From positions 83,386-147,385 of the forward strand of contig JBHLON010000001.1 in assembly GCA_048940445.1 (NCBI GenBank): a stretch of DNA of 64,000 bases, in the 5' to 3' direction. The notes beneath the pieces are model-generated. The model worked only from the letters and a program-made list of their open reading frames with translations, made no database searches and was not told the origin of the DNA. The stretch is from Promethearchaeota archaeon (lineage in GTDB: Archaea; Asgardarchaeota; Lokiarchaeia; Sigyniarchaeales; SOKP01). Of the stretch, positions 2,609 through 39,014 are shown one piece after another (position 1 is the first letter of the stretch; each line of letters starts with the position of its first letter). Made by a program: the position numbers and the translations under genes.

Positions 2609-5572
2609 TTGGGAATAAAGAAGCTTCTATACATGGTTAAAAGTAGAATTAATTTAAAGTTCATTAAACATACTTGGTTAAGCTTAAAAAGAGACAAGAC
2701 CAAAGCGGTGTTTGCTATACTAGGAATTATGATTTCAATTACTCTTTTAACAGCAATAGGTATGGTAAACGATACGATGTCCTATAATTATATGCAGATA
2801 ATAACTAGCAGTACAGGAAATGCCGATATTATGATTTCAAAAAGAGTACAATCAGATATTAGTTATGATCCTTTCTTTGATGAAAATCTTATAGATAATG
2901 ACTTACAAAATATTGAAGGTGTTCAAGAATTCTTTCCTAGAATAATGATGTTTGTGAGAGTATCAGCTAATAACACAAATACAAATGCAACTTTAGAATT
3001 ATATGGTTTAGATTTTTTAAAGGAAGCATATAATGGTCATATGGGAAACTTAGCACTAGTTGATCAATACGGTCTAACAACTGGAAATCTATATTTAGAT
3101 GAACCAAAAGCAGGGGAATGTGTGATCTTATGGAAAGTCGCAGAATTATTAAACGTAACTACAGGCGATTATATTCATCTTGAATACATTCAAAATGAAA
3201 TTGATCTAGAAATTGTAGCAATTTGCAAGCAAGATCTTAAATTTTCGGAATTTGAAAACTCTTTGATACTAGTTAATATTCAGCAAGCACAATCAATTTT
3301 AGATAAACCAAATAGCATTAACTTCATTTATGGAACTTTAAAAAATCCTGAGTCTATATATGACATACGAGATGTAGCAGCCACACAAAGTAAATTAAGG
3401 GTAATTGGAACCAGAATTCAATTACGCTTAGATATCAATGAGTTTTCTGTTGCAATGCCGAAGTTAGAAGAAATTGGAGCGCAAGAATTTATGTTAATCG
3501 CAATGACAGTAATTTTTTGGTTTATCACACTTATTGGAATGTTGATAACTGGTATATTGATTAATTCAATATTATCCACTTCATCTGAAGAAAGACAAAG
3601 AGAATATGGAATTTTGAGAGTTGTTGGAGGGAAAAAGACATTTCCAATTAAAGTGGTGTTATTTGAAGGTGTTTTAATCGGAACAATTGGAGCAATTTTA
3701 GGGATAATAATTGGATTATTACTAACTCCACCAATAGTTAACTTTTTATTTGTTATGACTGGTTTTCGACTTCAAAATGTAGTATATATTATCCAACCTC
3801 AAACTGTACTTCTTGCTTTCGCTATAGGTGCTGGAGGAGCGACGGTTGTTGCATTATTACCCGCTTTTAAAACAGCTAAAATAAATTTAATTAAATCTAT
3901 TACTCCTTTTCGGGCAAAAGAAGAAGGATGGGAAGTTAAGAAGGAAGGGAGTATGAATGTCAAAAGCTTTCTTGTAGGAATCTCAATAGCAACAATTGGT
4001 ATGGTTGTATTTATACTTCTACCAAATATAGTGGTTACTGGTGAATTTATGTTAATTGCTGGTTTATTTATTGGTTTGCTTTGTGCAATTTTAATTGGTC
4101 TAGTATTCGCTTCCGTAGGTATTGTACCGCTAATTCAGCAAATTTTTTTAGGAATAATTAAACCATTTATACGCAAGTATGCTAACATAATTAGTATCTC
4201 ATTAAAACGCAATCGAAGACGAAATACTAGTACAATTGTTATGTTTGCAATTAGTTTTTCATTTATTTTCTTTATCACGAGCGTCACTCAGATGGAATCG
4301 GAAAATACATCTTTAAATTTGCAGTTTCAATATGGTTCAGACCTAGTTATTGTCAATCAAGGATTAGAAGGAGAGCCTAACGCTATAACATTAGAAATGG
4401 CAGAAGAAATAAAGGATCTTCAGGGGGTTGAAGATGTTGCTATTACTTTATTTAACATGTTTGATATTACCTCTGCTATATCACTCATCTACAGCTTTAG
4501 TGAAGGTGGTGGAATGTTTGATGAAGAGTCAATTAATGAAGCATTTCTTAATATCTTTGAGTTCTATAAGGAACAATCAGAAAGAAAGTACAAAGTAGTA
4601 GCTTCAGATATCCCTGAATTTGAACCTCTTGAAGTAGGCTTCATCGGAATTGAAGAAAACTTTATTAATTTGATTGATAAGGACCTAATTATCTGGAATA
4701 GTCCTGGGAGTGGGACAGAATATTCCTATAATCGACTTTTTAGTCATAATGATACTTGCGTCATTTCAGAAGCAATCGCAACAGTTCTTGGCATTAAAGA
4801 AGTAGGAGAAAAAATATTACTTTCGTTCTATGAAAATGAGACTAAGGAAGTCAGAAATCCTTTAATATTTACAGTTTGTGGAATATCTGGTGGAATTCCC
4901 GGTTTCTTTAACTTTAGAAGTTCTGTTTCAATGGCAGAAGGAGGGGGAGTAATGGTTTCTTTGGAGAATTATATTAGATTAATGGGTATAGAAAATCCGG
5001 GAAATCCTGAAATGACTGTAGACAAAATTTTTTTAAGTTTAATCGACAAATCAGAAGAAAGTATTGAACAAACAAAGGAAGATATTCAAGCTTCATACGA
5101 GAATAAAGCCTTTTTCATTGATGATGCTGTTTCGAAAATAAACTTTCTTAGTGATATGTACAAACGACAAAGTACTTTAATGGAAATTATTAATTGGTTT
5201 GCTATTGCAATAGCAATTTTTGGATTAATAAGCTCTATGTATGCTGTTATGCTCGAAAGAAAGTTTGAAATTGGAATTTTAAGATCGCTTGGTATGAAAG
5301 TTAAAAATGTAAGGAATTTATTTTTAATCGAGAGTATGATTTTAATGCTTTCAAGTGGAACTATGGGAACATTAATCGGAACCTTTTGTGCATATATGTT
5401 AGAATCTAATTTGGGATTAATAACAGAGATGCCAATTGTTTTTGATATTCCATTTGACATTTTATTTCGAGTTTACTTTATTTCAATAATTGTTGGCTTT
5501 ATAGGGATGTATATTATACTAATTCGGTTAAGTAGGCAAACAGTAATGGATATATTTAGACAAACCTTCTAA
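2609..5572 (+). CDS. FtsX/MacB-type ABC transporter permease (double FtsX domain)
   Basis: 987 aa. There are two TM blocks separated by large extracytoplasmic domains. Two copies of the FtsX-family loop motif are present: 'ERQREYGILRVVGG' and 'ERKFEIGILRSLGM'. The start is TTG, 4 nt after the SD-like AGGTGA (2599-2604). Confidence 0.85.
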   Translation: MGIKKLLYMVKSRINLKFIKHTWLSLKRDKTKAVFAILGIMISITLLTAIGMVNDTMSYNYMQIITSSTGNADIMISKRVQSDISYDPFFDENLIDNDLQNIEGVQEFFPRIMMFVRVSANNTNTNATLELYGLDFLKEAYNGHMGNLALVDQYGLTTGNLYLDEPKAGECVILWKVAELLNVTTGDYIHLEYIQNEIDLEIVAICKQDLKFSEFENSLILVNIQQAQSILDKPNSINFIYGTLKNPESIYDIRDVAATQSKLRVIGTRIQLRLDINEFSVAMPKLEEIGAQEFMLIAMTVIFWFITLIGMLITGILINSILSTSSEERQREYGILRVVGGKKTFPIKVVLFEGVLIGTIGAILGIIIGLLLTPPIVNFLFVMTGFRLQNVVYIIQPQTVLLAFAIGAGGATVVALLPAFKTAKINLIKSITPFRAKEEGWEVKKEGSMNVKSFLVGISIATIGMVVFILLPNIVVTGEFMLIAGLFIGLLCAILIGLVFASVGIVPLIQQIFLGIIKPFIRKYANIISISLKRNRRRNTSTIVMFAISFSFIFFITSVTQMESENTSLNLQFQYGSDLVIVNQGLEGEPNAITLEMAEEIKDLQGVEDVAITLFNMFDITSAISLIYSFSEGGGMFDEESINEAFLNIFEFYKEQSERKYKVVASDIPEFEPLEVGFIGIEENFINLIDKDLIIWNSPGSGTEYSYNRLFSHNDTCVISEAIATVLGIKEVGEKILLSFYENETKEVRNPLIFTVCGISGGIPGFFNFRSSVSMAEGGGVMVSLENYIRLMGIENPGNPEMTVDKIFLSLIDKSEESIEQTKEDIQASYENKAFFIDDAVSKINFLSDMYKRQSTLMEIINWFAIAIAIFGLISSMYAVMLERKFEIGILRSLGMKVKNVRNLFLIESMILMLSSGTMGTLIGTFCAYMLESNLGLITEMPIVFDIPFDILFRVYFISIIVGFIGMYIILIRLSRQTVMDIFRQTF

Positions 5573-26838: not shown

Positions 26839-27018
26839 TTAAATCTAAATTTTATTTTTTAATTTTTTAAGTAATCTAAATGCTCTTTCACATTTATTAA
26901 ATCGAGTTATGAAGTTAGATTATTTAAGTAATTAATCCCGAGCTCCAACTTTATTCTTTGTGATAACTTTTATATATCAGTAAATCCAAATAGATTTATC
27001 CAATATTTGGTGATTTAA

Positions 27019-27651
27019 ATGAGTATAACGTTCGATTTCTTTTTACCGTTTGGATTTCTGTATTGGAGTTGGTTAACATGGATTCTTTTTATCATTTTCG
27101 TCCTTACATACTTATTCCTCATTTTAGGAAGTAGGGATTTAAAAAGGGACAATTTTGCATCTACAAAATTCTTGTTTGTCATTGGGATCTTACTTTTAGT
27201 TTGGTATATTCTAGTACAACTTTTTATTCCTTCAATGTCCGTTACTTCACCGACTCCAATGGAATTTATCATTTACATTATCTATACTTTGTTTCTAGGA
27301 TCCGGGATAATCTATCAAGTTTTACATATTATATTAGGAATTGGATTTATTAAAGTTGGAAGCAGTAATAGAGACCATGGTGGAACTGTCGCATTGGTTG
27401 GTGGTATTTTATATCTTATAGCATGGATACTTATTATGTTAAGTGACATATTTTTTTCGTTTATTCCAGTATATCTTTCTTCACTACTATTTAGCGTTAT
27501 TGGTTGGCTTATAATTATCACAAGCCTTGCAGCGGCAATTTTAATCTTTATCTTCAGTATCTTTACTAAGAGACCTTTGTTTATAGTATTTGGTGCTTTA
27601 TTCTTAGCGATTTACTCTTTCCAATTCTTATATTTAACTGGAATTATATGA
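27019..27651 (+). CDS. Polytopic membrane protein, unknown family
   Basis: 210 aa, almost entirely hydrophobic helices, with no recognisable motif. Confidence 0.5.
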   Translation: MSITFDFFLPFGFLYWSWLTWILFIIFVLTYLFLILGSRDLKRDNFASTKFLFVIGILLLVWYILVQLFIPSMSVTSPTPMEFIIYIIYTLFLGSGIIYQVLHIILGIGFIKVGSSNRDHGGTVALVGGILYLIAWILIMLSDIFFSFIPVYLSSLLFSVIGWLIIITSLAAAILIFIFSIFTKRPLFIVFGALFLAIYSFQFLYLTGII

Positions 27652-27670
27652 CATTAATCAATTTCTTTTT

Positions 27671-28042
27671 TTATTTCTTTATACTTAATTTTTCTCTGTT
27701 TTCCTCAGTATCTTCATAAATGTGCCACTCAGCGACTAAATCGTTTTCAATAGTTGCTGTCCATATTGCATGATCCTCTTCTAATGAATCTTCTGACCAT
27801 CTAGCATAACCGATTAATATCACTAAATTTTCTTGAGATTCCACCTGTGTAAAGGTATTTTTGTAAGTAGGGAAATTCTGGAAGAATTCTTTCCAACCAT
27901 TTATCATATCTCCAAAACAATCTCCATGGCGATCGATAAATACATGGTCCTTTGTCATGAGATTAGTAATCCCTTTTATATCTTGATTATTAATGCAATC
28001 ATTAAATAGTAATGCGATTAATTTTGGGTCCCTAGAGTTCAT
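27671..28042 (-). CDS. NTF2-fold / SnoaL-like small protein
   Basis: 123 aa. The pattern 'LFNDCINNQDIKGITNLMTKDHVFIDRHGD...' is typical of SnoaL/NTF2-like cone proteins. Confidence 0.45.
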   Translation of the reverse strand: MNSRDPKLIALLFNDCINNQDIKGITNLMTKDHVFIDRHGDCFGDMINGWKEFFQNFPTYKNTFTQVESQENLVILIGYARWSEDSLEEDHAIWTATIENDLVAEWHIYEDTEENREKLSIKK

Positions 28043-28176
28043 AAAACCACCTTAGAAAGAAGTATTCTAACGCCTTGTCTCTTTATTCAAAAACTAATAA
28101 AATATTTATTTTTTAATAAAATAAATTACATATTATTATTTTAAAAATATTATTAATGAAAATAGAAAACATTAAA

Positions 28177-28280
28177 GGGCCCATGGTCTAGAGAATTCGT
28201 TATATATAGAAGATTCGGAAATTTGGTATGACGTCCGCTTGACGTGCGGAAGGTCGGGAGTTCAAGTCTCCCTGGGCCCA
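28177..28280 (+). tRNA. tRNA-Val (anticodon GAC) with a ~31-nt intron in the D-loop
   Basis: Acceptor GGGCCCA/TGGGCCC. Anticodon arm TCCGC-TTGACGT-GCGGA. Variable loop AGGTC. T-arm GGGAG-TTCAAGT-CTCCC. Discriminator A. The D-arm GTCTAG...TTGGTATGAC is interrupted by AT-rich sequence. The gene is a GC-rich island in an AT-rich region. Confidence 0.8.
28192..28222 (+). other. Non-canonical (D-loop) tRNA intron of tRNA-Val
   Basis: Removing 'agaattcgttatatatagaagattcggaaat' restores a 73-nt cloverleaf. The exact boundaries are ambiguous by 1-2 nt. I did not verify a bulge-helix-bulge fold. Confidence 0.6.
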
Positions 28281-28316
28281 TTAACTTATCAAAAGTTAAG
28301 AGGAACACCAAAAGCT

Positions 28317-28796
28317 ATGCCAATAAGAATTCGTTGGAGATCAAAGGAAAATATCCCTTTTGCTTTAATGATTTTAGGAGGATGTGGTCTTTTCCAAGTA
28401 TTATTTATTTTTATTGCTCAATACTTATTAAGAGTTGGAAATTATATAATGATCATTTTAATCCCATTTGGAGCAATAATAGGGTTATACTTTGGAACTA
28501 CTATGGTTTTTGAAGCTTTTGCCCAAGAACAACGAAGAAGGAAATTAAAAAGGCAGTTTCAAAAATTAAGATTCGACTTTTCGATTATTCAAAGATTTTT
28601 AGACTTTCCTGTAGTTAAACCATTACTTATTATATTTATGATTTTCACTCCTTTGTTCTTTATTACATATTATGCAACTCTTTATTATTTGGGTAATATA
28701 ATTTCCTTTTTAGTTGCTGAAATTTTTTCGACTTTAATCTGTTTACTTATAGCAAATCTCGTTGAAAAGAAATATGGAAAAGTAAAAAGATACTAA
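28317..28796 (+). CDS. Small membrane protein, unknown family
   Basis: The track ORF (28239) begins inside the tRNA. The first ATG clear of the tRNA is 28317 ('MPIRIRWRSKE...'). There are four hydrophobic helices separated by a basic 'QEQRRRKLKRQFQKLR' loop. Confidence 0.5.
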   Translation: MPIRIRWRSKENIPFALMILGGCGLFQVLFIFIAQYLLRVGNYIMIILIPFGAIIGLYFGTTMVFEAFAQEQRRRKLKRQFQKLRFDFSIIQRFLDFPVVKPLLIIFMIFTPLFFITYYATLYYLGNIISFLVAEIFSTLICLLIANLVEKKYGKVKRY

Positions 28797-28929
28797 AAAA
28801 TCAATTAAATATTTTTTTTTGATCTCGTAATTATTAAGAAATCATAATAATTTAATACCAAAATAGTTATTATGTATATAACCATAATCGCAATAGGATA
28901 AATCTATAATTAAAAGTTCGATTTCTATC

Positions 28930-29772
28930 ATGGCTAAACTTCAAGTTCGATGCCCTTCTTGTTCAAAGAGTAATTTCATTGAGGTTTCAGATGAAGAAGT
29001 TAAAAAAGCGTCAAAAGGTCTTTTTGCTGTAAATGTTGCAGAAGGGATAGTATGTAACCATTCTTTTGTGGCTTATGTAGATAAAAATTTTACTGTAAGA
29101 GATGCTTTCATAGCCGATTTTCAAGTTGAACTTCCGAGTACTAATACTGAAAAAGTTGTTGAAGTAAAAAAAGATTTTTCTGATTTATTTGACATTGATT
29201 TGATTAAATTAAATATTACCGCCTCTTTATTAGGATATGTTCTAAGAGCTATGATATTTAAAAAGAAAATTGTACTAATTTCTAATCAACAATATATCTT
29301 TAATCAAGTTTCAAACTTTTTTCATTACATCACCGAAAATTCTTTTGGGATAGATCTTATCTTAATTGATGAGAATCAATATAACAAGGACTCATTTGGC
29401 GATCATTTCGCTTTTAAAGGTCGAGAAATTGTTACTGATTTTAACGGTAAGCTCGAATCCACAAAGATAAATGTTGAGAAAACTATAATTCAAAAATTCT
29501 TAAATGAATATGATCCTATGACAAGCTTAATCATACTAAAGAATGAAATTCAAAAAGCATTTCAGCTGTCTAAAACAATAGTAGAGATAATTAACAATTT
29601 AAAGAAAAATGAAAAAATCTATTCTAAAAAATTAATAATTGAATTAGAAAAAAGACATAATCTAAAAATAGTAATACCCTATTTAGAGTTTCTTTATGAA
29701 ATTGTAGAAAATTATTTTGACGTAAAAATCCCAAAATCGTCAGGTATTTCCAATTTCCTCGGGACCTTATAA
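28930..29772 (+). CDS. Zinc-ribbon protein with a C-terminal alpha/beta domain (weak DENN-core-like segment)
   Basis: 280 aa. 'RCPSCSKS...VCNHS' forms a CxxC...CxH site. The central 'LLGYVLRAMIFKKKIVLISNQQYIFNQVSNFFHYI' resembles the DENN-core 'aLLxErrIvlxSsxxxxLxxvxxal' pattern. No family is confirmed. Confidence 0.35.
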   Translation: MAKLQVRCPSCSKSNFIEVSDEEVKKASKGLFAVNVAEGIVCNHSFVAYVDKNFTVRDAFIADFQVELPSTNTEKVVEVKKDFSDLFDIDLIKLNITASLLGYVLRAMIFKKKIVLISNQQYIFNQVSNFFHYITENSFGIDLILIDENQYNKDSFGDHFAFKGREIVTDFNGKLESTKINVEKTIIQKFLNEYDPMTSLIILKNEIQKAFQLSKTIVEIINNLKKNEKIYSKKLIIELEKRHNLKIVIPYLEFLYEIVENYFDVKIPKSSGISNFLGTL

Positions 29773-29921
29773 ATTTAGATCAAAAAGCTAATATAATTAC
29801 TTTGAATACTTACCTAATAATATTAACTACTTATTCTGATCTAAATATAGGAAATATTAAATTAATTGATTATTATTAGACAATCATATTAATAGGATAA
29901 GGAAAACGTGTTATAAATAAG

Positions 29922-30782
29922 GTGATTGATAAAATGAATGATCTCATATTTTTTAGTTTGATTATGTTAATATTTTTGAGAGCTGTAGGATTAGGAGTTT
30001 CTGTGGAATTCTTTTATAACACGAGAGATCGGAAATTCATATCTTTCATTTTCTGCTGGATTTTTTGGATGATTGCGAACATCTTTCCAATATTAGCAGA
30101 TATTGTCTTAAATATGAGTTTAAAAGAAATTTTTCTTATAGTTAATATATTATTTTTTATTCTTGGAGTTATTTTTTACTTTTGGGGATTTTGGCAATAT
30201 TATCTAATAATATCATCAAGGATATTGATTGCTTTAATAATTATATCTATTATAACCCCTCTTTTATTGTATATTCTGATCGATTTCAATATTGCTATGA
30301 CATTTTCGACAATGATTATTATGCTTTTATTTCTGAGTGGATATATAATACCACCATTAAAAAAAAGGGAATTTGTAAAATATATGGGTAAAACAATAAG
30401 ATGGTATTATGCGGCAACAGTAACATTTGTTCTTTATTTTCCAATTTCAATTATAAGTTACACATTAGGATACAGATATGGCGTGTATTTCGCTGAGGAA
30501 CCCCTGATTATAATATTATACTATATTCCTAGCCTTGGTATTACGCTATTACTCATTGTTTTACTCGTTCACATCGAATACTCTATTTCCTCTCGTCATA
30601 AAAATGATTTGAAGGATAAATATTCTCATGATTTAGGGAATATAATGCAGGCAATTAGTTCTGCTTATGAACTTTATAGCTTAAAGCTTGAAAATATTAA
30701 AGGATCTGCCGAATTGGATAATATGTTAAAATCAAAGATTACTGAGGCCGGTAAACTAATTAAAGATATACGGGAATTATAA
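29922..30782 (+). CDS. Membrane protein ending in a HisKA-like (DHp) helix; no kinase ATPase domain
   Basis: 286 aa with about 6-7 TM helices. The C-terminus has 'KYSHDLGNIMQAISSAYEL' (an H-box like SHDLRNPL), and the ORF stops about 45 aa later without N/G1/G2 boxes. Confidence 0.55.
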   Translation: MIDKMNDLIFFSLIMLIFLRAVGLGVSVEFFYNTRDRKFISFIFCWIFWMIANIFPILADIVLNMSLKEIFLIVNILFFILGVIFYFWGFWQYYLIISSRILIALIIISIITPLLLYILIDFNIAMTFSTMIIMLLFLSGYIIPPLKKREFVKYMGKTIRWYYAATVTFVLYFPISIISYTLGYRYGVYFAEEPLIIILYYIPSLGITLLLIVLLVHIEYSISSRHKNDLKDKYSHDLGNIMQAISSAYELYSLKLENIKGSAELDNMLKSKITEAGKLIKDIREL

Positions 30783-30898
30783 ATCAAAATTATTATAATA
30801 ATAATTATTTCATAGTTTTCGTAAAATGTCTGTTTCACGAAAATTCATCTAATTAGGATAGCTTATTATAATACTTATATTAAATTAAGTATGTAAAA

Positions 30899-30989
30899 TG
30901 CGTCGTCCGGGATTTGAACCCGGGTCCCGCGCGTTCTGCTTTCAATTAGAAAATGGCAGGCGCGGATTCTACCACTATACTAACGACGC
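30899..30989 (-). tRNA. tRNA-Gly (anticodon GCC) with a canonical 37/38 intron (~20 nt)
   Basis: The reverse complement gives acceptor GCGTCGT/ACGACGC, D-arm GTAT-AGTGGTA-GAAT, and anticodon stem CGCGC/GCGCG with loop CTGCCA[intron]C. The T-arm is CCGGG-TTCAAAT-CCCGG and the discriminator is A. Intron 'GCAG' can pair with 'CTGC' of the anticodon loop. Confidence 0.85.
30934..30953 (-). other. Canonical-position intron of tRNA-Gly(GCC)
   Basis: 20 nt 'TTTTCTAATTGAAAGCAGAA' (tRNA-sense) lie between A37 and C38. Removing them yields a 71-nt tRNA. Confidence 0.7.
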
Positions 30990-31060
30990 TTTATTTAAGA
31001 TTTAAAAAACTGCTAAATTATACTAAAATAAATTAGTTTAAAGAAAAAAAACTTTTTTAA

Positions 31061-31924
31061 TTAATCTTTTAAATCAAATATTATTTCAACTGAACTGACA
31101 ATCCCCAACTTACGGGCAAATCTTCTAATATATTGAATCCTATGTTTTTTAATTACATCTGAGACAATCAAAGTTGGAATAAAAGGAAGGATCATAAAAA
31201 AAGGGAACGGAATGAAAATTGCCAATAAAATGGAAAATAAACTTGTAAAACTAGCCGTTTCTACTAAAAAGATAGTAATAAATTCAAAATAGGAGAATAT
31301 TACTGATACACCAGCGTAACCTTTTAGAAATTGCCCATACCATCTCCCTATAGAACGAACCTCAGGTGGATTAATTGTTTTATCTAATTTATTTCTATTA
31401 GAATAGATTATACCAGAATCACTTAAAAACCATGTAGTAGAGAAAAGTATTGTTGCAAGAAAAAAAGTTAGTACTAATAATACTACAAAGGTAGTAGCAT
31501 AATCTGCTTGAGTAGTCGGTATGCTCCCTCTTGAGAAGGTGACAATTTCAGGAGTAAGTAAAAATAATGAGAAATTAATAGCCATTAATGCAGAAAATAA
31601 ACCAGAAGAAAAATATTTAAATTTGGGAAATTCTGGTCTATTGAAAAGTCCATATTCCATTTTGGTTTTAAAGATTTTTTTATGGATATAAAGAAAAAAC
31701 GGTGAAAATCCATATCCACCAACAAATAAACCAATTAAAGAAGATACGGGTAATATGATTATAGAAAGTAATCCTGTTTCTAATCCCATATCAGAAATTG
31801 GAATTAATTTAGTTAAATCATCGGTTCTTCCAATAATTAAAGAAAAAGTAATAGAGATCCCAATCCAAAATAAGCAATAAAATAAAAAGAACAATAAAGC
31901 TCGTTTATATTTCCCAATTTTCAT
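31061..31924 (-). CDS. Polytopic membrane protein, unknown family, translationally coupled to the upstream small GTPase
   Basis: 287 aa with multiple TM helices. Its ATG (31922-31924) is 1 nt from the GTPase stop codon (31926-31928). Confidence 0.6.
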   Translation of the reverse strand: MKIGKYKRALLFFLFYCLFWIGISITFSLIIGRTDDLTKLIPISDMGLETGLLSIIILPVSSLIGLFVGGYGFSPFFLYIHKKIFKTKMEYGLFNRPEFPKFKYFSSGLFSALMAINFSLFLLTPEIVTFSRGSIPTTQADYATTFVVLLVLTFFLATILFSTTWFLSDSGIIYSNRNKLDKTINPPEVRSIGRWYGQFLKGYAGVSVIFSYFEFITIFLVETASFTSLFSILLAIFIPFPFFMILPFIPTLIVSDVIKKHRIQYIRRFARKLGIVSSVEIIFDLKD

Positions 31925-31925
31925 A

Positions 31926-32444
31926 TTATTTTACCATAATTCTACTAATTATATCAAATACTATATCTATATTTTCTCCAGTTTTGGAAGAACACTCTAA
32001 ATATTCTAAGAAATTATTTTCATTGGTAAAATTTTTAGCTTCTTCCTGGGAGATTGTTCTATTCTCCATAAGATCTAATTTACCACCAACTAAGACTTTA
32101 GGAACTTCTTGATTATGAGTTTGATTTGAATTATCAAACACCGTTAGCCAATCTGTTAAATTTTTAAAAGTATTATATCGGGTAAGATCATACATAAAGA
32201 TAGCCCCATGTGTGCCTACTAGAGTGCTAGATAATAAAAATCTGAACTTATCTTCACCTGCAAAATCCCATATATGAAGAGCAATCTTATTACCATTCAA
32301 ATGTAGTTTCTTTACATAAAAATCCATGCCTAATGTTAATTTGTATGACTCTTTAAAAACACCAGAAAGATATCGATGCGTTAGAGTAGTCTTTCCAACA
32401 GCAGAATCCCCTAAAATGCAGACCTTATACTGATTATCTTCCAT
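31926..32444 (-). CDS. Rab/Ras-like small GTPase (Asgard-type), no C-terminal lipidation motif
   Basis: G1 'GDSAVGKT'; switch I 'TLGMDF'; G3 'WDFAGED'; G4 'GGKLD'; G5 'CSSKTG'. 172 aa, ending '...RIMVK'. Confidence 0.85.
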   Translation of the reverse strand: MEDNQYKVCILGDSAVGKTTLTHRYLSGVFKESYKLTLGMDFYVKKLHLNGNKIALHIWDFAGEDKFRFLLSSTLVGTHGAIFMYDLTRYNTFKNLTDWLTVFDNSNQTHNQEVPKVLVGGKLDLMENRTISQEEAKNFTNENNFLEYLECSSKTGENIDIVFDIISRIMVK

Positions 32445-32703
32445 GTTTCAGATATGAGATTAAGTATTCGTTTTAATAGTTCGTAATTTCTTTACAATAT
32501 GATATAAAGCCTACAATTTAAGTATTAATTTATCAATAGATTTAAAAAGAAAAAATACATAGCAATTTTTTAAAAAATAGAGGAAACATTGATTCAATTA
32601 ATAGGAAAATTCAAATGAAACACGGGTAATATCATCAATCGTGTAATATTTTTATTAATCTAATAATATTATAAGAAAAAAGTCTATTTGTATTAATATT
32701 ATC

Positions 32704-33729
32704 CTACACAATTTTTGAGATTACTTGTTTAATAGGATTACTTTTAACAAAAGTTTCTAATTCATATGAACTATTAGGAAGTCCTTCACGAACACCAATT
32801 TCTTTACATTCTAGATAGGACATTGCTGTAGCCATTTTTGAAGCCTTTTGTAAATCAAAATTATTTAATTCTGAAATTAGGAGCCCGGAAAGGAACGCAT
32901 CTCCCGCACCAGTTGTATCTTCTACAGAACCTGGATAAACAGAACTATTAACAATATGATTACCATCAGAGATAATGGAGCCATTGGGTCCATCTGTTAT
33001 AGAAATTAATTTTATCCCCATATCTAAAAAATGATGGATCATATGGGTTGCATCCTTTTCATTTGTGAATTCTTCAGCTTCTTCTTTATTTAAAGAAACT
33101 ACATCAGAATTGGATATTAATTCTTTGGCCCATTTCGGGTTATTTTTAATTATTGACATGCTAGGAGCAGCAAAGATTCTGCCATTTTGGTCTATTGTGA
33201 GATCTATTGCTTTTTTAATAGCTTTACAGCCATTTTCAGAAGTTAAAGAAGTCCATGCAAACGCTTTTGCATTGTTAAAAATTTCATCTTTGATATTAGA
33301 AGCCTCCAATAAGTTATTAGCCCCTTTATAAGCAAGTATACTTCTATCTTTTCCCCATTCTGTCTTTAAGATCACTGAAAATGCTGTATTATCTTTCTCA
33401 GTCTGAATAATGTTAGACATATCGACTCCTCTATTTTTCATATCTTCTAGACATATATTTGCTGAAAAATCTTTACCCATAATACCAATATATGTGCTTT
33501 TTAATCCTAGCATAGCACAATTAGTTGCAATATTTGCTGCAGAACCCCCTGGGACAAATCTAACTTTTTCAACGTTAAGTTTTCGACTATATTCAATAGC
33601 AGTGTATTTTTTAACTATATCTTTATCTAATAATTCGAATCTAAGAATATCATTTACTTGAATCATGCAATCAAGGGTGCAACTTCCAATTGTAATTACA
33701 TCAAAATTACTGTTCATTTTATACCACAA
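32704..33729 (-). CDS. PfkB-family carbohydrate/nucleoside kinase
   Basis: 'GGSAANIA' and 'DTTGAGDAFLSG' signatures. ATG 33717 (MNSNF...) is an alternative start. Confidence 0.85.
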   Translation of the reverse strand: MWYKMNSNFDVITIGSCTLDCMIQVNDILRFELLDKDIVKKYTAIEYSRKLNVEKVRFVPGGSAANIATNCAMLGLKSTYIGIMGKDFSANICLEDMKNRGVDMSNIIQTEKDNTAFSVILKTEWGKDRSILAYKGANNLLEASNIKDEIFNNAKAFAWTSLTSENGCKAIKKAIDLTIDQNGRIFAAPSMSIIKNNPKWAKELISNSDVVSLNKEEAEEFTNEKDATHMIHHFLDMGIKLISITDGPNGSIISDGNHIVNSSVYPGSVEDTTGAGDAFLSGLLISELNNFDLQKASKMATAMSYLECKEIGVREGLPNSSYELETFVKSNPIKQVISKIV

Positions 33730-33817
33730 ATATTAAAAAGTTGAAATCGATGAATATGTTAAAAATAAAGCTTTAACTTAAATAGTTTTAGCTAATAAGA
33801 TAATTGTATTATTATTA

Positions 33818-33864
33818 AATGTTTAAAGAGCTTTCTAAATCAAGAATTAAAGCCTTTAAACATT
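33818..33864. repeat. 11-bp perfect inverted repeat (AATGTTTAAAG ... CTTTAAACATT) with a 25-nt spacer
   Basis: Read directly from the sequence. It is intergenic, between the MFS gene end and the PfkB kinase start. Confidence 0.6.
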
Positions 33865-34014
33865 AATTTTTGATTTTAAACTTAATTTTCATTAATTAGA
33901 TTCAAACTGTATTTTAACAGAAACTTTGAATTAGGAATTGAGTAAACCTACGTTTTTAAATATCTTAGACAAGAGAAGAAGTAATAAGTAAATTTCCGGA
34001 GATTATTTGGGCCT

Positions 34015-35196
34015 TTAATTTCTTTCCTCTTCTGGGGGTTTGATATTACGAAATATAAAATAAATTGCTATATCATACACAATTTTAATACTTCCACCAA
34101 AAACAAATGGTAAAATAAAATTTCCCGTATCAATTAATGATGTAGCTAATGGAGGACTGATAGATGAGGATACTGTTCGAACAGTATTAGTAATTGCTGC
34201 AGTTGATGCTCTATCTTCAGATTTAACTATTGCATTTACATAAGATTGCCTTGTGGGAACATCCATTTGTGAAATTGATTGCCGTAAGAGTAACAGTACT
34301 ACCGCAAATACCAATGTAGGGGCAAAAGGTACGGCTATTAAAAAGATATTAGAAGGAATGTGTGTGATAACCATCGTTTTTAATAGACCAACTCTTTTTG
34401 CTAAAATTGGTGCTAAAACTATAGAGATTGCCGTGATAATATCTGTAAGAGAGAAAATAATTGATAAAGATATTAATTGCACATTGAATCTTAAATAGAA
34501 CCATGTTGAAAGCAAGACTTTAACGATGAATCCTCCTCCAAACGCGTCAATTGAAAACAAAGAAGATAATTTTAAAACAATTTTTCTTGAATCGGAATGA
34601 AATATTATTTTTTCAGATTTAGCAAAAATTTCATCAATATTTTTGAAACTCAAATATATGATCATTTGAAATATACCGATAATTAAATATGCATAAAAAG
34701 CAAAACTTAAAGATAAGCCAACTTGTGGTAAAAAATCTGGTAGCCCACTGAATAGAGATCCTAACGACATGGACACGTAACCAACGAAATTGTAAAAGCT
34801 AAAAATATGAGTTCTTTTTGTGTCATCTACAGACCAAGAAATTATTGATTGTTCAATACTTTGAAAAGGTCCTGTTTCTGTTCCATGAGCACTCAATAAA
34901 CCGATAAGAGCCGCAACAATGATCATAGTTGAATTTAAGTTCCATAGGAATAGCGATGCAGAGACAACCATTAAGAATGAGAGAAACACCAATATCCAGC
35001 GTTGACCTATTCGTTTTATTACTAACGTTAATATGATATTAAAGGGGATATTTGATAAGATCATCAAAGAAACAATAATACCTACAAAAGTCAGGTTATA
35101 ACCTTGACCAAGTAAATATAACGGTAAAATGATACTCATAAGTGAACTTCCAAATACTCTTATAAATTTTACTACCATTAATTTTTGAATTAGCAT
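34015..35196 (-). CDS. MFS transporter
   Basis: 393 aa with a 12-TM-like layout and a central loop, which is typical MFS organisation. Confidence 0.7.
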   Translation of the reverse strand: MLIQKLMVVKFIRVFGSSLMSIILPLYLLGQGYNLTFVGIIVSLMILSNIPFNIILTLVIKRIGQRWILVFLSFLMVVSASLFLWNLNSTMIIVAALIGLLSAHGTETGPFQSIEQSIISWSVDDTKRTHIFSFYNFVGYVSMSLGSLFSGLPDFLPQVGLSLSFAFYAYLIIGIFQMIIYLSFKNIDEIFAKSEKIIFHSDSRKIVLKLSSLFSIDAFGGGFIVKVLLSTWFYLRFNVQLISLSIIFSLTDIITAISIVLAPILAKRVGLLKTMVITHIPSNIFLIAVPFAPTLVFAVVLLLLRQSISQMDVPTRQSYVNAIVKSEDRASTAAITNTVRTVSSSISPPLATSLIDTGNFILPFVFGGSIKIVYDIAIYFIFRNIKPPEEERN

Positions 35197-35321
35197 AATA
35201 AAATTACTAAAAGTAGAATTAACTAAAAAATCATATTATTTTGAAAATCTATTTAATAAAGGAGAACTGAAAGCTAAATAAATTTAGTTTCAATATAAAA
35301 TTTTTTAGGAAAAGGTAAATT

Positions 35322-35948
35322 TTAATCTCTCGATTTTAATTTATTGAGTTCTTCTTCTAATTCCTTAATCTTACCATCGGGTTCTACAGAGGGTAATGCT
35401 CCCCCTACTTCAGCTCCAATTTCTGCATCTATTTCACCTAAAACATCCTTAACATCAGTATCAGTAACTGCAGTATCAATCATTAAATCATTTATTCCAT
35501 CAGTAGTTATTTCTTCCGTAACATTAAAGTCTTCGATATCTACTCCAATTTGAGTCATAAGTTCGGTAATTTGTGGAATTGATAATGAATTTTTTAGCGC
35601 ACCAAGACTCATTGCTATTCCTCTCATAATTTCAGCAACATCTTTTACAGCACTAGCTTGTTCCAACTTAAAGACCATACCTTCAAGGTTTGTCCTGAAT
35701 AGGTCTATTGCTCTTGCTTGTTTCTTAACTTGTAAGTAGTTACGAGCGTGAAATTCCGAACCCTGCATATCACCAGCTTTTCGAAGATTGACAGCTTTGT
35801 CCCTTGCAAGTTTTGCTGACATCTCCATTTTTTTTGTTTGCCTCATTAATCGTTTGTTAAAAACTTTTAATTTTACGGTCGCAGATCGTACAGTATCCTT
35901 TTTACGACCTCCGGATAACCAACCCGAAAGATCTTTCAAAAATCCCAT
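35322..35948 (-). CDS. ESCRT-III (Snf7/CHMP family; Vps2/24/46-like)
   Basis: 208 aa. The N-terminal half is a basic helical hairpin ('KLKVFNKRLMRQTKKMEMSAKLARDKAVNLRKAG...'). The C-terminal half is acidic. The terminal 'IKELEEELNKLKSR' has MIM1-like Leu spacing. The gene is divergent from vps4. Confidence 0.85.
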   Translation of the reverse strand: MGFLKDLSGWLSGGRKKDTVRSATVKLKVFNKRLMRQTKKMEMSAKLARDKAVNLRKAGDMQGSEFHARNYLQVKKQARAIDLFRTNLEGMVFKLEQASAVKDVAEIMRGIAMSLGALKNSLSIPQITELMTQIGVDIEDFNVTEEITTDGINDLMIDTAVTDTDVKDVLGEIDAEIGAEVGGALPSVEPDGKIKELEEELNKLKSRD

Positions 35949-36163
35949 TTTTCATCAACTTTTAGTTAATTTATATAATATAAAAAAATTCGAGATTATA
36001 TAATTTTTTGTAGACCAATAATTAAGATGATAAATCTCGAGGAGACATCATACCAAAAAGAAAATTTGTATTAACTTTTTTTAATGTTTAATAAAAGTGA
36101 AGATTGGTATTAGATTAATTTAAATAACAATTGAAATATTATAAAATAAAATAAGCTAAAAAT

Positions 36164-36180
36164 AAGAGGTTTTAATTATC
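36164..36180 (+). promoter_or_regulatory. Shine-Dalgarno (AAGAGGT) plus in-frame near-cognate start candidates ATT (36175) / ATC (36178) for vps4
   Basis: GAGGT at 36166-36170 immediately follows the in-frame stop TAA (36163-36165). ATT and ATC lie 4 and 7 nt downstream, in the Vps4 frame. Confidence 0.45.
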
Positions 36181-37395
36181 TCATCAGTAGACTCAAAACT
36201 ATATCAATATGCAGTCCAAGAAGCTCAAGCTGCTGTAAATTTAGATGAAAAAGGTCATTTACACCAAGCAATGAATAAGTACTTTAGAGCAGCAGAAATA
36301 CTTATTCAATTTATTAAGTATAATAAAAATCCAATTATGATCAGAAAGTGTAAAGATCAAATTGAACAATACATGACTAGGGCTCAAGTTCTTAAAGAGC
36401 ATCTAAGTGGTCCAAGAGCTAGGAGGCCACATCCAAAGGCAACTCCTAGTGAACCACATGAAGGAGAACCAAATGCAGAGGAAGGAAGTCTATCAGCTGA
36501 GGAGCAGGAACTCATGGACTCTATTTCAGACACAATCTTAACAGAATCCCCTAATGTTAAGTGGAACGAAATCGCAGGTCTAAGCGATTGTAAGCAAGCA
36601 GTAAGAGAAGCTATTGTATTACCAATCATGAAACCGGATTTATTTACAGGTGCAAGAAAACCATGGTCGGGAATATTGTTATTTGGACCTCCTGGATGCG
36701 GAAAAACATTATTAGCAAAAGCGGCTGCCACGGAATGTAAAGCGACATTTTTTAGTGTCTCATCAGCAGATTTATTAAGCAAATGGTTAGGTGAAAGTGA
36801 AAAATTAATCTCATCGCTTTTTAAGTTAGCCCGAACAAGAGCACCAAGCCTAATTTTTATGGACGAAATTGATTCCGTAACCACGACTAGAGGTAGTGGA
36901 CATGAAGGAGGAGGAGAGAGAAGAGTCAAAACTCAGTTATTACAAGAAATTCAAGGCGTTAAATCAACTCATGATAAGCCAATGCTTGTGCTGGGAGCTA
37001 CAAACCGACCTTGGGATATTGATATAGCAATGTTAAGCAGATTTGAAAAGAAAGTATACGTGCCACTTCCAGATCAACCAGCAAGAGCAGGTATTTTTAA
37101 GATTCATACTTCAGGAGTTAATTCTGCCTTAACAGAAGAAGATTATATTGAATTAGCAGTTCGTACTGAGTCTTATTCTGGTAGAGACATATCAAATATT
37201 TGCCGTGAAGTCATTATGATTCCTGTAAGAGAATTAGATATGGGTGGGTTACTGGAAGATCCGGAAAAAGAAGTTGTTGTGAGAGATATAAACCTAAAAG
37301 ATTTTTTAAAGACTATAAAGAAAGTAAAGCCAATGATGACTAAGGCTGAATTGAAGAAATATCAAGTATGGGCAGAGGAATTCGGAGAATTTTAG
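36178..37395 (+). CDS. vps4: Vps4 AAA+ ATPase (MIT domain + AAA + Vps4 C-terminal helix)
   Basis: Walker A 'GPPGCGKT', Walker B 'LIFMDEID', 'ATNRPWDID' and 'LSRFEKKVYVPLP'. The MIT helices 'LYQYAVQEAQAAVNLDEKG / HLHQAMNKYFRAAEILIQFIKY / IMIRKCKDQIEQYMTRAQVLKEHL' start upstream of the first ATG (36271, the conservative start). The proposed start is ATC 36178 or ATT 36175. Confidence 0.9.
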   Translation: MSSVDSKLYQYAVQEAQAAVNLDEKGHLHQAMNKYFRAAEILIQFIKYNKNPIMIRKCKDQIEQYMTRAQVLKEHLSGPRARRPHPKATPSEPHEGEPNAEEGSLSAEEQELMDSISDTILTESPNVKWNEIAGLSDCKQAVREAIVLPIMKPDLFTGARKPWSGILLFGPPGCGKTLLAKAAATECKATFFSVSSADLLSKWLGESEKLISSLFKLARTRAPSLIFMDEIDSVTTTRGSGHEGGGERRVKTQLLQEIQGVKSTHDKPMLVLGATNRPWDIDIAMLSRFEKKVYVPLPDQPARAGIFKIHTSGVNSALTEEDYIELAVRTESYSGRDISNICREVIMIPVRELDMGGLLEDPEKEVVVRDINLKDFLKTIKKVKPMMTKAELKKYQVWAEEFGEF

Positions 37396-37396
37396 G

Positions 37397-38281
37397 ATGG
37401 AGAAACAAAGAGAAAAACCAAAAGAAATTCCAAAAAAAGTTGAAGAAAAAGCAACAATAGATCTAGATGAATTAAGAAAGGAGTTAGCACGATTAAAAGA
37501 ACTGAAGAAACAAAGAGAGTCAGAGAAGCCTCCGGAAGACATTGTTAAGGAAGAAGAAGTTATTGAAAAACCAATTTCAGAAAACATTGGAACTCGGTTA
37601 GATAGAATTGAGGATTTCTTGACAAGTAAACTTGGTGATGTAGATTTAGAAGCATATAAGCAACATTCTGCTCAAATAGAAAAAGAACTTAAAAGCATAG
37701 AACAAGAATTAGTAGGTGAAGAAGGTGTTATAGCTAAAGAGATCTCTACCTACGAATTACTACTCAATGATTATCCTTGGCTTGAAGAAAAAAGATATGT
37801 ATTCATGTATTCTATCCCTAATAAAAAAAATAATCTTAAAGATTTCGAATCATGGAAGAATGAATGGTCAAAGGTACTTTTTGATTATGCAAGATATGCA
37901 ATTCTTCACATTTTATATTTAAGAAAATTAGAATCGGAGAAGCCATTCTCTAAATTTGAAAACAGAAATACAGCTTTAGAAATAATTGCGCAGGAATTAG
38001 TCGATAGAAACCAGGCAGAATGGCTTACAAAAAGCAAAGAGAAATTAAGAATATATTGGAAAACTCTTGACAATTGGGCAGAGGAAATTTATGAATGGGC
38101 CATGGAAATATCACCTCTAGAACCCATTTTGATATTTGAAATAAGAGAATCTAATAGAGCTTTCAGTACATTACCAAAAGAGGATTTGCTTGAAATTTTC
38201 AAAAGACTTGAGAAAAATGAACGTGGAAGGATTATTAAGTCAGAGGATGGCCAAATATCTTTCAAAATAAAGGTAGAATAG
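37397..38281 (+). CDS. vps25: ESCRT-II Vps25-like protein with a ~110-aa charged N-terminal extension
   Basis: 'NQAEWLTKSKEKLRIYWKTLDNWAEEIYEWA' compares with human VPS25 'GNLEWLDKSKSSFLIMWRRPEEWGKLIYQWV' (recalled from memory). The C-terminus '...RIIKSEDGQISFKIK' compares with '...AEIITVSDGRGVKFF'. The ATG is 1 nt after the vps4 stop. Confidence 0.8.
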   Translation: MEKQREKPKEIPKKVEEKATIDLDELRKELARLKELKKQRESEKPPEDIVKEEEVIEKPISENIGTRLDRIEDFLTSKLGDVDLEAYKQHSAQIEKELKSIEQELVGEEGVIAKEISTYELLLNDYPWLEEKRYVFMYSIPNKKNNLKDFESWKNEWSKVLFDYARYAILHILYLRKLESEKPFSKFENRNTALEIIAQELVDRNQAEWLTKSKEKLRIYWKTLDNWAEEIYEWAMEISPLEPILIFEIRESNRAFSTLPKEDLLEIFKRLEKNERGRIIKSEDGQISFKIKVE

Positions 38282-38285
38282 ATTT

Positions 38286-39014
38286 TTATATCGAGGGAAA
38301 ATACCATTGCTTCCCCTTTAAAAGGGACTCTCTATATTTTGCAATACCACTTTGCTCAAGAGAATGCAAAGTCTCTAATGCTCGATCCTGAGCCCAATTT
38401 AACCCCACACATACATCCTCTAAAGACAGAAAACCCTTATCTTTAGCAATTTCTAAAACTTTTACTTGATCACTAGTATATTGTACTGGAAAGAATCTAA
38501 TCATTATAGTGCCTGAATCCAATTCAATTAAATCATCAATTACTTGATTTTTCTTTAGTATCTTCAATGCTTTATTTAAGTCTTTAATATCAACGTTTCC
38601 TTTTAAAATTCCGGTATTTATCATGTCAAAAACTTCTGAAATAGGAATTATTCCGGCTCCAATTTCTTCTTTTTGCATAAGAACTCTTTGATATGCTAAC
38701 ATACCTAACTTCTCATGATCTACCTTTGAAGACCTTTTTAAAACATCATGTTCATTAATTTGCTCGGTGATGATTTTAGAAGTAGGAATTTTATATTCTT
38801 TTTGTAAATATTTTACTTCATCCTTTAATTCTGGTGTTAAAGCTAAAACAACTCCATGTTTCTTAGCTAATTCTCTTAATCTTTCCTTTGTAAACTTTTC
38901 TGTTTCTGCTTTAGCTTGAATGTCTTTTATTCTAAGCTCTGCTGCCTTTTTCTTGATCGCTTCTTTTAAGTCAATTTCATCTTCTATTTTTCGAATACCC
39001 ATCCTGCCTAACAC
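38286..39014 (-). CDS. ESCRT-II Vps22/36-like (EAP30 domain) protein
   Basis: The N-terminal 'GRMGIRKIEDE...' helix, then tandem winged helices ending 'LNWAQDRALETLHSLEQSGIAKYRE...KQWYFPS'. This matches the SNF8/EAP30 C-terminal pattern. Confidence 0.8.
   Translation of the reverse strand: MLGRMGIRKIEDEIDLKEAIKKKAAELRIKDIQAKAETEKFTKERLRELAKKHGVVLALTPELKDEVKYLQKEYKIPTSKIITEQINEHDVLKRSSKVDHEKLGMLAYQRVLMQKEEIGAGIIPISEVFDMINTGILKGNVDIKDLNKALKILKKNQVIDDLIELDSGTIMIRFFPVQYTSDQVKVLEIAKDKGFLSLEDVCVGLNWAQDRALETLHSLEQSGIAKYRESLLKGKQWYFPSI

Follow-up and report, generated by a model that had tools for sequence, protein, structure and literature searches.

A RasL GTPase gene inserted beside the gene of an uncharacterised Asgard membrane protein, near ESCRT genes of a Lokiarchaeia-type archaeon

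What does it mean when a Rab-like GTPase without a lipid anchor is encoded a single base upstream of a membrane protein that belongs to no described family? This question is raised by a locus in a stretch of 64,000 nucleotides (nt) from a Promethearchaeota archaeon (contig JBHLON010000001.1, positions 83,386 to 147,385), here called the window, where the gene of a 172-amino-acid (aa) small GTPase precedes that of a 287-aa polytopic protein, here called MEMB. An initial annotation had proposed that MEMB is a dedicated partner tethering a Rab-like switch to membranes. Our comparison of related loci gives a different history: the GTPase arose by duplication from a RasL GTPase associated with transporters and catabolism, and the copy was inserted, in one sub-lineage only, between MEMB and a PfkB-type sugar kinase, which is the ancestral and most frequent partner of MEMB. 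The explanation that we tentatively favour, although it is far from assured, is that MEMB is a novel transporter-like protein of sugar and phospho-sugar operons with a cytoplasmic docking face, and that it is bound or regulated by the GTPase, which descends from an ancestor associated with transporters. The pair itself is laid out as follows.

31926..32444, minus strand: RasL ('Rab-like') small GTPase of 172 aa, recognised by Pfam, by its motifs and by its orthologs upstream of MEMB; stop codon TAA at 31928-31926.
31925, minus strand: single-base spacer between the TAA of the GTPase gene and the ATG of MEMB; the two genes are in different frames.
31061..31924, minus strand: MEMB, a 287-aa polytopic membrane protein of an uncharacterised, Asgard-restricted family, recognised by family searches and an AlphaFold2 (AF2) model.

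Both open reading frames (ORFs) were confirmed where the initial annotation had placed them, 1 nt apart, and their start codons match the N-termini of their homologs. They are real genes and not chance ORFs, considering that MEMB has homologs in 80 clusters by single-sequence search and in 119 by profile search, and that 11 residues are invariant in an alignment of 24 sequences, in which WFLxDSGIxYSN and RSIGxWYxxxLKGYAG are strong motifs. An exhaustive profile search collected 521 representatives at 50% identity. Where the organisms are named, the labels are almost all Asgard (Promethearchaeota), and a few metagenome-assembled genomes (MAGs) are labelled as other archaea. The NCBI labels of the MAGs are inconsistent: Thorarchaeota, Hodarchaeota, Hermodarchaeota, Odinarchaeota and even Bathyarchaeia appear as names on loci (L010-L089) with 70-85% identity to, and full synteny with, Lokiarchaeia-type loci, and they look unreliable for judging taxonomic spread.

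The description of MEMB as a polytopic protein of no recognisable family holds. It has no Pfam match at E <= 5 and no NCBIfam match at E <= 0.01, none of the 119 homolog clusters carries a precomputed Pfam domain, and a profile search of PDB sequences gave 0 matches. The AF2 model is confident (predicted local distance difference test score, pLDDT, 87; predicted TM-score, pTM, 0.86), and a Foldseek comparison of it with the PDB found no match (best E 3.2, TM-score <= 0.31). Comparison of the N-terminal with the C-terminal half by hhalign found no internal repeat (probability 0.3%), no FeoB profile matched, and Pfam and PDB profile searches found no homology to ESCRT subunits. A fusion to a GTPase was sought among the long members of the family; P0362 (463 aa), P0251 (375 aa) and three others carry no Pfam domain. 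An outcome that would have spoken against a GTPase partner, namely membership of a known transporter family (MFS, DMT, SWEET, ECF-S and others), was found neither by sequence profile, nor by fold, nor by internal repeat. According to the positive-inside rule the chain probably crosses the membrane in six transmembrane (TM) helices and both starts and ends in the cytoplasm. Three conserved, basic and hydrophilic segments (81-105, 168-202 and 258-287), which contain both strong motifs, are predicted to be cytoplasmic, and conservation is highest in the predicted cytoplasmic loops and TM2-4 and lowest in the outer loops.

The GTPase matches the Pfam Ras family (PF00071) at 1.8e-44 (151.6 bits, cut-off 21.6) and TIGR00231 small_GTP at 2e-23 (82.9 bits, cut-off 42.5), and in a comparison with the PDB its nearest solved structure is the 'Thorarchaeota Rab' 7EZB (2.8e-34). 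In the current classification such Asgard proteins are called RasL and not true Rabs, no Asgard sequence being specifically sister to the Rabs (bioRxiv 2024.02.28.582541). All motifs quoted in the initial annotation are present: GDSAVGKT at residues 12-19, TLGMDF at 37-42, WDFAGED at 59-65, GGKLD at 120-124 and, as the G5 motif, CSSKTG at 151-156. Alignment to Thor-Rab and Rab14 shows that the G1 P-loop, Thr37 of switch I and the D60-F-A-G63 of G3 are retained, and that Glu64 occupies the position of the catalytic Gln (Q61 in Ras). In G4 (GKLD) the Lys and Asp are kept and Asn is replaced by Gly.

The initial annotation treated these altered motifs as something special to this protein, which can no longer be upheld. 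The G3 sequence WDFAGE, with Glu at the Ras Q61 position, is present in 121 of 121 proteins (the window GTPase and its 120 best homologs); the G4 Asn position is occupied in the same set by Ser in 103, Gly in 9, Ala in 8 and Asn in 1. The single homolog with Asn (GNKLD), P0082, has 86% identity, and this exchange of G, S, A and N among near-orthologs suggests that the G4 position is under weak constraint. It has previously been shown that the Q61E substitution raises the intrinsic GTPase activity of Ras (PMC2987813, PMC10515638); therefore Glu64 speaks for a self-sufficient hydrolase more than for a disabled switch, and it would be compatible with an active enzyme that is possibly independent of a GTPase-activating protein. 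The idea of a dead or altered switch was rejected on these three grounds: the clade-wide Glu, the faster hydrolysis of Ras Q61E and the variable G4. The C-terminus (...IISRIMVK) lacks the prenylatable Cys of strict eukaryotic Rabs, and 120 of the 121 proteins have no Cys within the last 5 residues. The deviant G3 and G4 and the absent Cys are traits of the whole clade and not markers of a special switch. That the GTPase has no lipid anchor is thus true, but a missing anchor or prenylation site has already been described for all archaeal Rab-likes (PMC4915359, PMC10933270), which have been proposed to reach the membrane via protein-protein interactions (PMC4915359).

The wider setting of the pair is needed to judge whether the two genes belong together. 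The following genes of the window surround it.

32704..33729, minus strand: PfkB-family carbohydrate kinase (Pfam PfkB, 4e-43), the best conserved of the upstream partners that clade-A MEMB has, and here split from MEMB by the inserted GTPase.
34015..35196, minus strand: MFS transporter between Snf7 and PfkB (Pfam).
35322..35948, minus strand: ESCRT-III gene (Snf7 family), head of the co-directional string Snf7-(MFS)-PfkB-GTPase-MEMB (Pfam, synteny).
36271..37395, plus strand: Vps4 AAA ATPase, divergent from Snf7 (Pfam).
37397-38281 (plus strand) and 38286-39014 (minus strand): ESCRT-II genes (Vps25-like, EAP30) after Vps4.

For comparison, 89 MEMB loci were retrieved, their ORFs were called by a simple procedure and labelled with the window proteins, and trees of MEMB and of the GTPases were built by neighbour joining only. 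A census of the same-strand gene directly upstream of MEMB covered 82 non-redundant loci. PfkB is found there in 19 of the 82 (gap 21-146 nt), a GTPase in 11 (nine of clade A1 and two of clade B, that is, two events), a histidine phosphatase (His_Phos_1) in 8, a small TM protein in 5 and an alkaline-phosphatase-superfamily phosphodiesterase in 3; 24 of the 82 loci have no such gene within 300 nt. The MEMB tree consists of three groups, clades A, B and C. In clade A1, which comprises the window, L001 and L010-L017 (MEMB identity 72-93%), the order is Vps4 / Snf7 > PfkB > GTPase > MEMB. In clade A2 (51-53%) a different GTPase lies between Snf7 and PfkB, in the order Snf7 > GTPase > PfkB > MEMB, all on one strand with gaps of 34-150 nt. 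Clades A3 (52-54%) and A4 (32-33%) have Snf7 ... PfkB > MEMB without a GTPase. PfkB and MEMB are separated by 21-45 nt in A2 and A3 and by 34-146 nt in A4, and their order stays the same even where MEMB identity has fallen to 32%.

Clade B (31-43%) is not linked to ESCRT genes. Its loci carry an AMP-binding ligase, three tandem paralogs of ~211 aa with four TM helices, a winged helix-turn-helix (HTH_34) regulator, a histidine phosphatase and MEMB; this operon is seen in L039 (4332-11662, CP070831.1), L032, L058, L054, L056, L047 and L043, often with a second GTPase. In L032 and L039 a GTPase replaces the phosphatase and a second GTPase follows downstream of MEMB. The B-type GTPase genes lie at distances of 12 nt and 181-279 nt from MEMB, which they flank on one side or on both. 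The two clade-B GTPases that flank MEMB are each other's closest relatives. In clade C an alkaline-phosphatase-superfamily phosphodiesterase or a sulfatase lies directly upstream of MEMB, one sub-clade has a GH38 mannosidase gene downstream of MEMB, and one locus has a BadF-type ATPase gene upstream of it. Considering that MEMB paralogs are habitually encoded downstream of sugar or sugar-phosphate enzymes (PfkB, histidine phosphatase, and phosphodiesterase or sulfatase with GH38 mannosidase), MEMB may be a solute transporter.

The origin of the GTPase points in a similar direction. The A1 GTPases are 61-78% identical to the window GTPase and form a monophyletic group nested within a large orthogroup, of which five of five sampled members are located in MFS-MFS-(flavodoxin)-GTPase-Beta_elim_lyase loci (L090-L094, GTPase at 4001-4550 in each). 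The monophyly of A1 inside this orthogroup, together with the MFS and lyase context of the other members, identifies the window GTPase as a lineage-specific copy that was inserted between PfkB and MEMB. Next to the parent orthogroup, the tree shows two sister clades of B-type GTPases, one of upstream and one of downstream copies. The A2 GTPases are distant (33-38% identity) and have WDIG[AG]QE and a canonical NKxD. Two side observations belong here. The MFS-MFS-(flavodoxin)-GTPase-Beta_elim_lyase loci suggest that a RasL GTPase is linked to the uptake and catabolism of amino acids or aromatic compounds. The A2 GTPase (WDIG[AG]QE, GNKxD; L002 1922-5885, L018, L020, L021, L026, L028 and L030) is encoded on the same strand as ESCRT-III and PfkB-MEMB, ~150 nt after the former and ~120 nt before the latter, and the ESCRT papers that were searched do not mention this ESCRT-III-adjacent GTPase.

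How tightly, then, is the GTPase bound to MEMB? The initial annotation concluded from the 1-nt spacing that the two proteins are co-translated in stoichiometric amounts. The spacer is 1 nt in the window, 2 nt in L010 and L011 and 12 nt in L013, and it widens to ~80-120 nt in the remaining loci of A1; spacing of 1-2 nt is thus limited to the window and these two loci, and therefore strict translational coupling is not a conserved property. On the one hand, GTPase genes are about 10-fold denser near MEMB, with 5.7 per 100 kb within 3.5 kb of it and 0.53 per 100 kb beyond, in the same loci, and after collapsing related loci the enrichment has P = 0.002-0.02 against the local background. On the other hand, the enrichment is not significant if GTPases are assumed to make up ~2% of genes. 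The qualitative argument is stronger than these statistics: three GTPase clades joined MEMB loci independently, A1 directly upstream of MEMB, A2 between Snf7 and PfkB, and B flanking MEMB; two of the three entries are directly adjacent to MEMB on the same strand, and no gene but MEMB is shared by all three contexts.

These data bear directly on a rival explanation, in which the two genes are neighbours by accident: after duplication, a GTPase gene would have ended up in the operon of PfkB and MEMB and be transcribed along with it, while its product would have no specific functional or physical link to MEMB and would act perhaps on PfkB, on ESCRT-III or elsewhere. The insertion is indeed confined to one sub-lineage, the GTPase-MEMB gaps range from 1 to ~117 nt, and the enrichment loses its significance under a high GTPase background. 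The region from Snf7 to MEMB also takes unrelated insertions, such as MFS in the window, MGMT in L002 and TrmO in L008; moreover, Asgard genomes are rich in GTPase paralogs, and most genes of eukaryotic signature proteins lie outside conserved neighbourhoods (PMC10933270). Nevertheless, mere chance would have to account for three GTPase clades reaching MEMB loci, twice in direct same-strand adjacency, for the 10-fold local enrichment, and for an A1 arrangement that was kept while the GTPase diverged to 61% and MEMB to 72% identity. We consider incidental adjacency unlikely, though it is an explanation to be taken seriously.

The proposal of the initial annotation was that MEMB is a dedicated integral-membrane receptor that tethers a Rab-like switch in place of prenylation and GDP dissociation inhibitor, to which it can now be added that such a receptor might link the switch to membrane remodelling by ESCRT-III and Vps4. 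Several observations agree with it: the same-strand adjacency is tight in the window and in nine orthologous loci, the GTPase-MEMB-GTPase arrangement of L032 and L039 is independent, MEMB is shared by all three GTPase-containing contexts and has a conserved basic cytoplasmic face, clade-A MEMB genes are always 2-4 genes away from Snf7 and Vps4, and localisation of archaeal Rab-likes by protein-protein contacts has been proposed (PMC4915359). The proposal fails to explain why PfkB and not the GTPase is the ancestral and commonest partner, why the sister clade A3 and the deep clade A4 have no GTPase at all, why the parent orthogroup of the GTPase works without MEMB beside MFS and β-eliminating lyase genes, and why paralogous MEMBs sit with phosphatases, sulfatases and a glycosidase, that is, with enzymes of sugar and phospho-sugar metabolism. 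The two published ESCRT neighbourhood analyses that were searched also do not name the PfkB, GTPase or MEMB genes. Conservation of the gene neighbourhood, which the initial annotation had suggested checking, therefore gives a divided answer, with a tight pair in ten loci, enrichment and three GTPase clades in its favour and the restriction to one sub-lineage, with PfkB > MEMB and no GTPase in sister lineages and none at most of the paralogs, against it. The nature of both proteins was described correctly, whereas the dedicated and conserved pair was not borne out, and a receptor of this kind now seems improbable.

A related but broader view is that the MEMB family serves as a membrane receptor and effector platform for non-lipidated RasL GTPases, independent of prenylation and wired in clade A to the ESCRT-III/Vps4 locus, so that the switch would control where and when membrane remodelling, or the handling of cargo and nutrients, takes place. 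We regard this as a little more doubtful still; if true, it would represent a prokaryotic forerunner of GTPase-specified membrane identity.

The ESCRT genes themselves suggest one more explanation. The context of Vps4 and Snf7 ... PfkB-MEMB is kept in every clade-A locus with enough flanking sequence, down to 32% MEMB identity, with MEMB located 1.1-6.7 kb from Snf7 in at least 21 loci and 2-4 genes from Snf7 and Vps4, and in A2 the genes of Snf7, the GTPase, PfkB and MEMB all run in one direction, 34-150 nt apart. Hence MEMB and PfkB could be accessories to the ESCRT machinery of Lokiarchaeia, perhaps as a membrane adaptor and as a kinase for head groups or small molecules that marks the membrane, with GTPases recruited as regulators. 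Against this stand the MEMBs of clades B and C, which have no ESCRT genes nearby and lie in catabolic-looking operons, and PfkB, which yields only generic sugar-kinase matches and reaches no equivalog cut-off. Since the Snf7-PfkB junction was repeatedly interrupted by unrelated insertions, the adjacency in clade A could be inherited synteny within one class. Of the explanations considered here we find this one the least credible.

The MFS gene at the Snf7-PfkB junction is present in the window only (0 of 28 other clade-A loci). A relationship to the MFS genes beside the parent GTPase orthogroup (L090-L092) was rejected, as there is no BLASTP similarity.

We thus return to the transporter-like reading as the one to which we tentatively hold. 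According to it, the module of the window would consist of the PfkB sugar kinase, the RasL GTPase and MEMB, downstream of an ESCRT-III gene in a Lokiarchaeia-type Asgard archaeon. MEMB would transport a solute derived from carbohydrates, or serve as a transporter-like membrane subunit for such a substrate, and its conserved basic cytoplasmic face would be a docking site for whichever soluble partner is encoded upstream. After the GTPase duplicate had been inserted between PfkB and MEMB, its product may have come to bind this face in a nucleotide-dependent manner, gating transport or reporting on it, and the membrane location of the GTPase would then be a by-product of MEMB binding. Several points weigh against this reading. 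MEMB shows no transporter homology, fold match or internal repeat, and conserved polar residues within its membrane part are few, mainly N117 and S162. In about 70% of the MEMB loci, among them those of the nearest GTPase-free sister clade, a GTPase gene is absent from the surrounding 3.5 kb, and the significance of the enrichment depends on the background chosen, as described above. Guilt by association cannot separate a transporter from a membrane dock for soluble enzymes, and the invariable ESCRT adjacency of clade A is not accounted for by a transporter.

The coupling of a small GTPase to a polytopic membrane protein is a known theme, and what is new here is the uncharacterised membrane family at its core. 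FeoB, in which a G domain is fused to a polytopic Fe2+ permease, is a model for GTPase-gated transport, and it resembles the pair in that the G protein directly precedes a polytopic membrane protein, within one chain in FeoB and as the upstream gene here. In contrast to FeoB, the window has separate genes in different frames, a Ras-like G domain that is not of the FeoB/TEES type, and a MEMB that resembles neither the FeoB membrane domain nor any PDB entry in sequence or fold. In lysosomal nutrient sensing of eukaryotes, the Rag GTPases, which are non-lipidated, are held at the membrane by protein partners, SLC38A9 and Ragulator. The transporter-like polytopic partner and the context of nutrients and catabolism are reminiscent of the locus studied here; the window GTPase is RasL, however, and not a Rag/Gtr protein with a roadblock domain, the locus has no roadblock or longin gene, and MEMB is unrelated to the SLC38 (APC-fold) family.

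Within the Asgard archaea, the window GTPase shares the Ras-family G domain and the short C-terminus without prenylatable Cys with the described RasL or archaeal Rab-like proteins (Klinger 2016; Surkont & Pereira-Leal 2016; 7EZB, Tran 2024). Thor-Rab has WDLAGQ and NKVD, whereas the window sub-clade has Glu for Gln and, in nearly all members, Ser, Gly or Ala for the G4 Asn; in addition, the window GTPase gene adjoins that of a polytopic membrane protein, and the parent orthogroup adjoins MFS transporters. One of the few conserved neighbourhoods reported for an Asgard Rab-like GTPase is the operon with a LAMTOR1-like roadblock protein and a DENN protein, which spans most Asgard archaea (Liu et al., bioRxiv 2020.10.19.343400). 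The companions of the GTPase are soluble regulators there, unlike the polytopic membrane protein and sugar kinase found here in one sub-lineage only.

The remaining features of the locus concern its local signals and its downstream neighbours.

32502..32508, minus strand: candidate archaeal TATA box TTTATAT, ~60 nt upstream of the GTPase ATG, from reading of the sequence.
31044..31051, minus strand: T8 run 10 nt past the MEMB stop, a candidate archaeal terminator that may end the unit, from reading of the sequence.
30899..30989, minus strand: intron-containing tRNA gene (91 nt) directly downstream of MEMB (Rfam tRNA, 48 bits).
28930..29772, plus strand: 280-aa Zn-ribbon protein, a convergent neighbour, with C8, C11, C42 and H44 invariant (N-terminal).

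T-runs are located directly after the PfkB stop and, together with TTTATAT, they make a separate promoter for GTPase-MEMB possible in the window genome; the TATA box was read in an AT-rich background (window GC 29%). A scan for bacterial promoters and terminators is uninformative for an archaeon. The intron-containing tRNA gene found with Rfam escaped ARAGORN, which listed no tRNA in 27000-37000. A tRNA-like match at 28217-28280 (plus strand) is sub-threshold (25 bits against a gathering value of 29, E = 0.004) and overlaps short ORFs, whose translations resemble read-through of tRNA genes. Between the tRNA and the Zn-ribbon gene there is a second polytopic membrane ORF (29922-30782, plus strand, 286 aa) that starts with GTG and whose C-terminus is a long helical tail in the cytosol; it has no family match and 0 phmmer matches in the retrieved loci. 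The Zn-ribbon gene accompanies clade-A MEMB in at least 16 loci, with or without the GTPase. Its product has no Pfam relative and 0 matches in a PDB profile search, and its single-sequence AF2 model is unusable (pLDDT 42). A role of this protein as a GTPase regulator was rejected, the RasGEF_N hint (E = 0.026 in 2 of 16 orthologs) being at chance level.

Asgard archaea encode dozens of Ras- and Rab-like GTPases that lack lipid anchors. The layout of the genome seldom pairs a given Asgard GTPase with a partner (PMC10933270); the window locus and the GTPase-MEMB-GTPase loci offer a concrete and testable pairing of RasL proteins with a membrane protein. MEMB itself is a sizeable family with a confident predicted structure, no match among solved structures and a fixed place beside Lokiarchaeial ESCRT genes, a position that, for MEMB as for PfkB, the two published ESCRT neighbourhood analyses searched do not mention. 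The large WDFAGE-type RasL sub-clade is habitually encoded with transporters and catabolic enzymes and not with trafficking machinery, and if this pattern holds, the expected role of many Asgard 'Rab-likes' would shift from vesicle traffic to the transport and sensing of nutrients.

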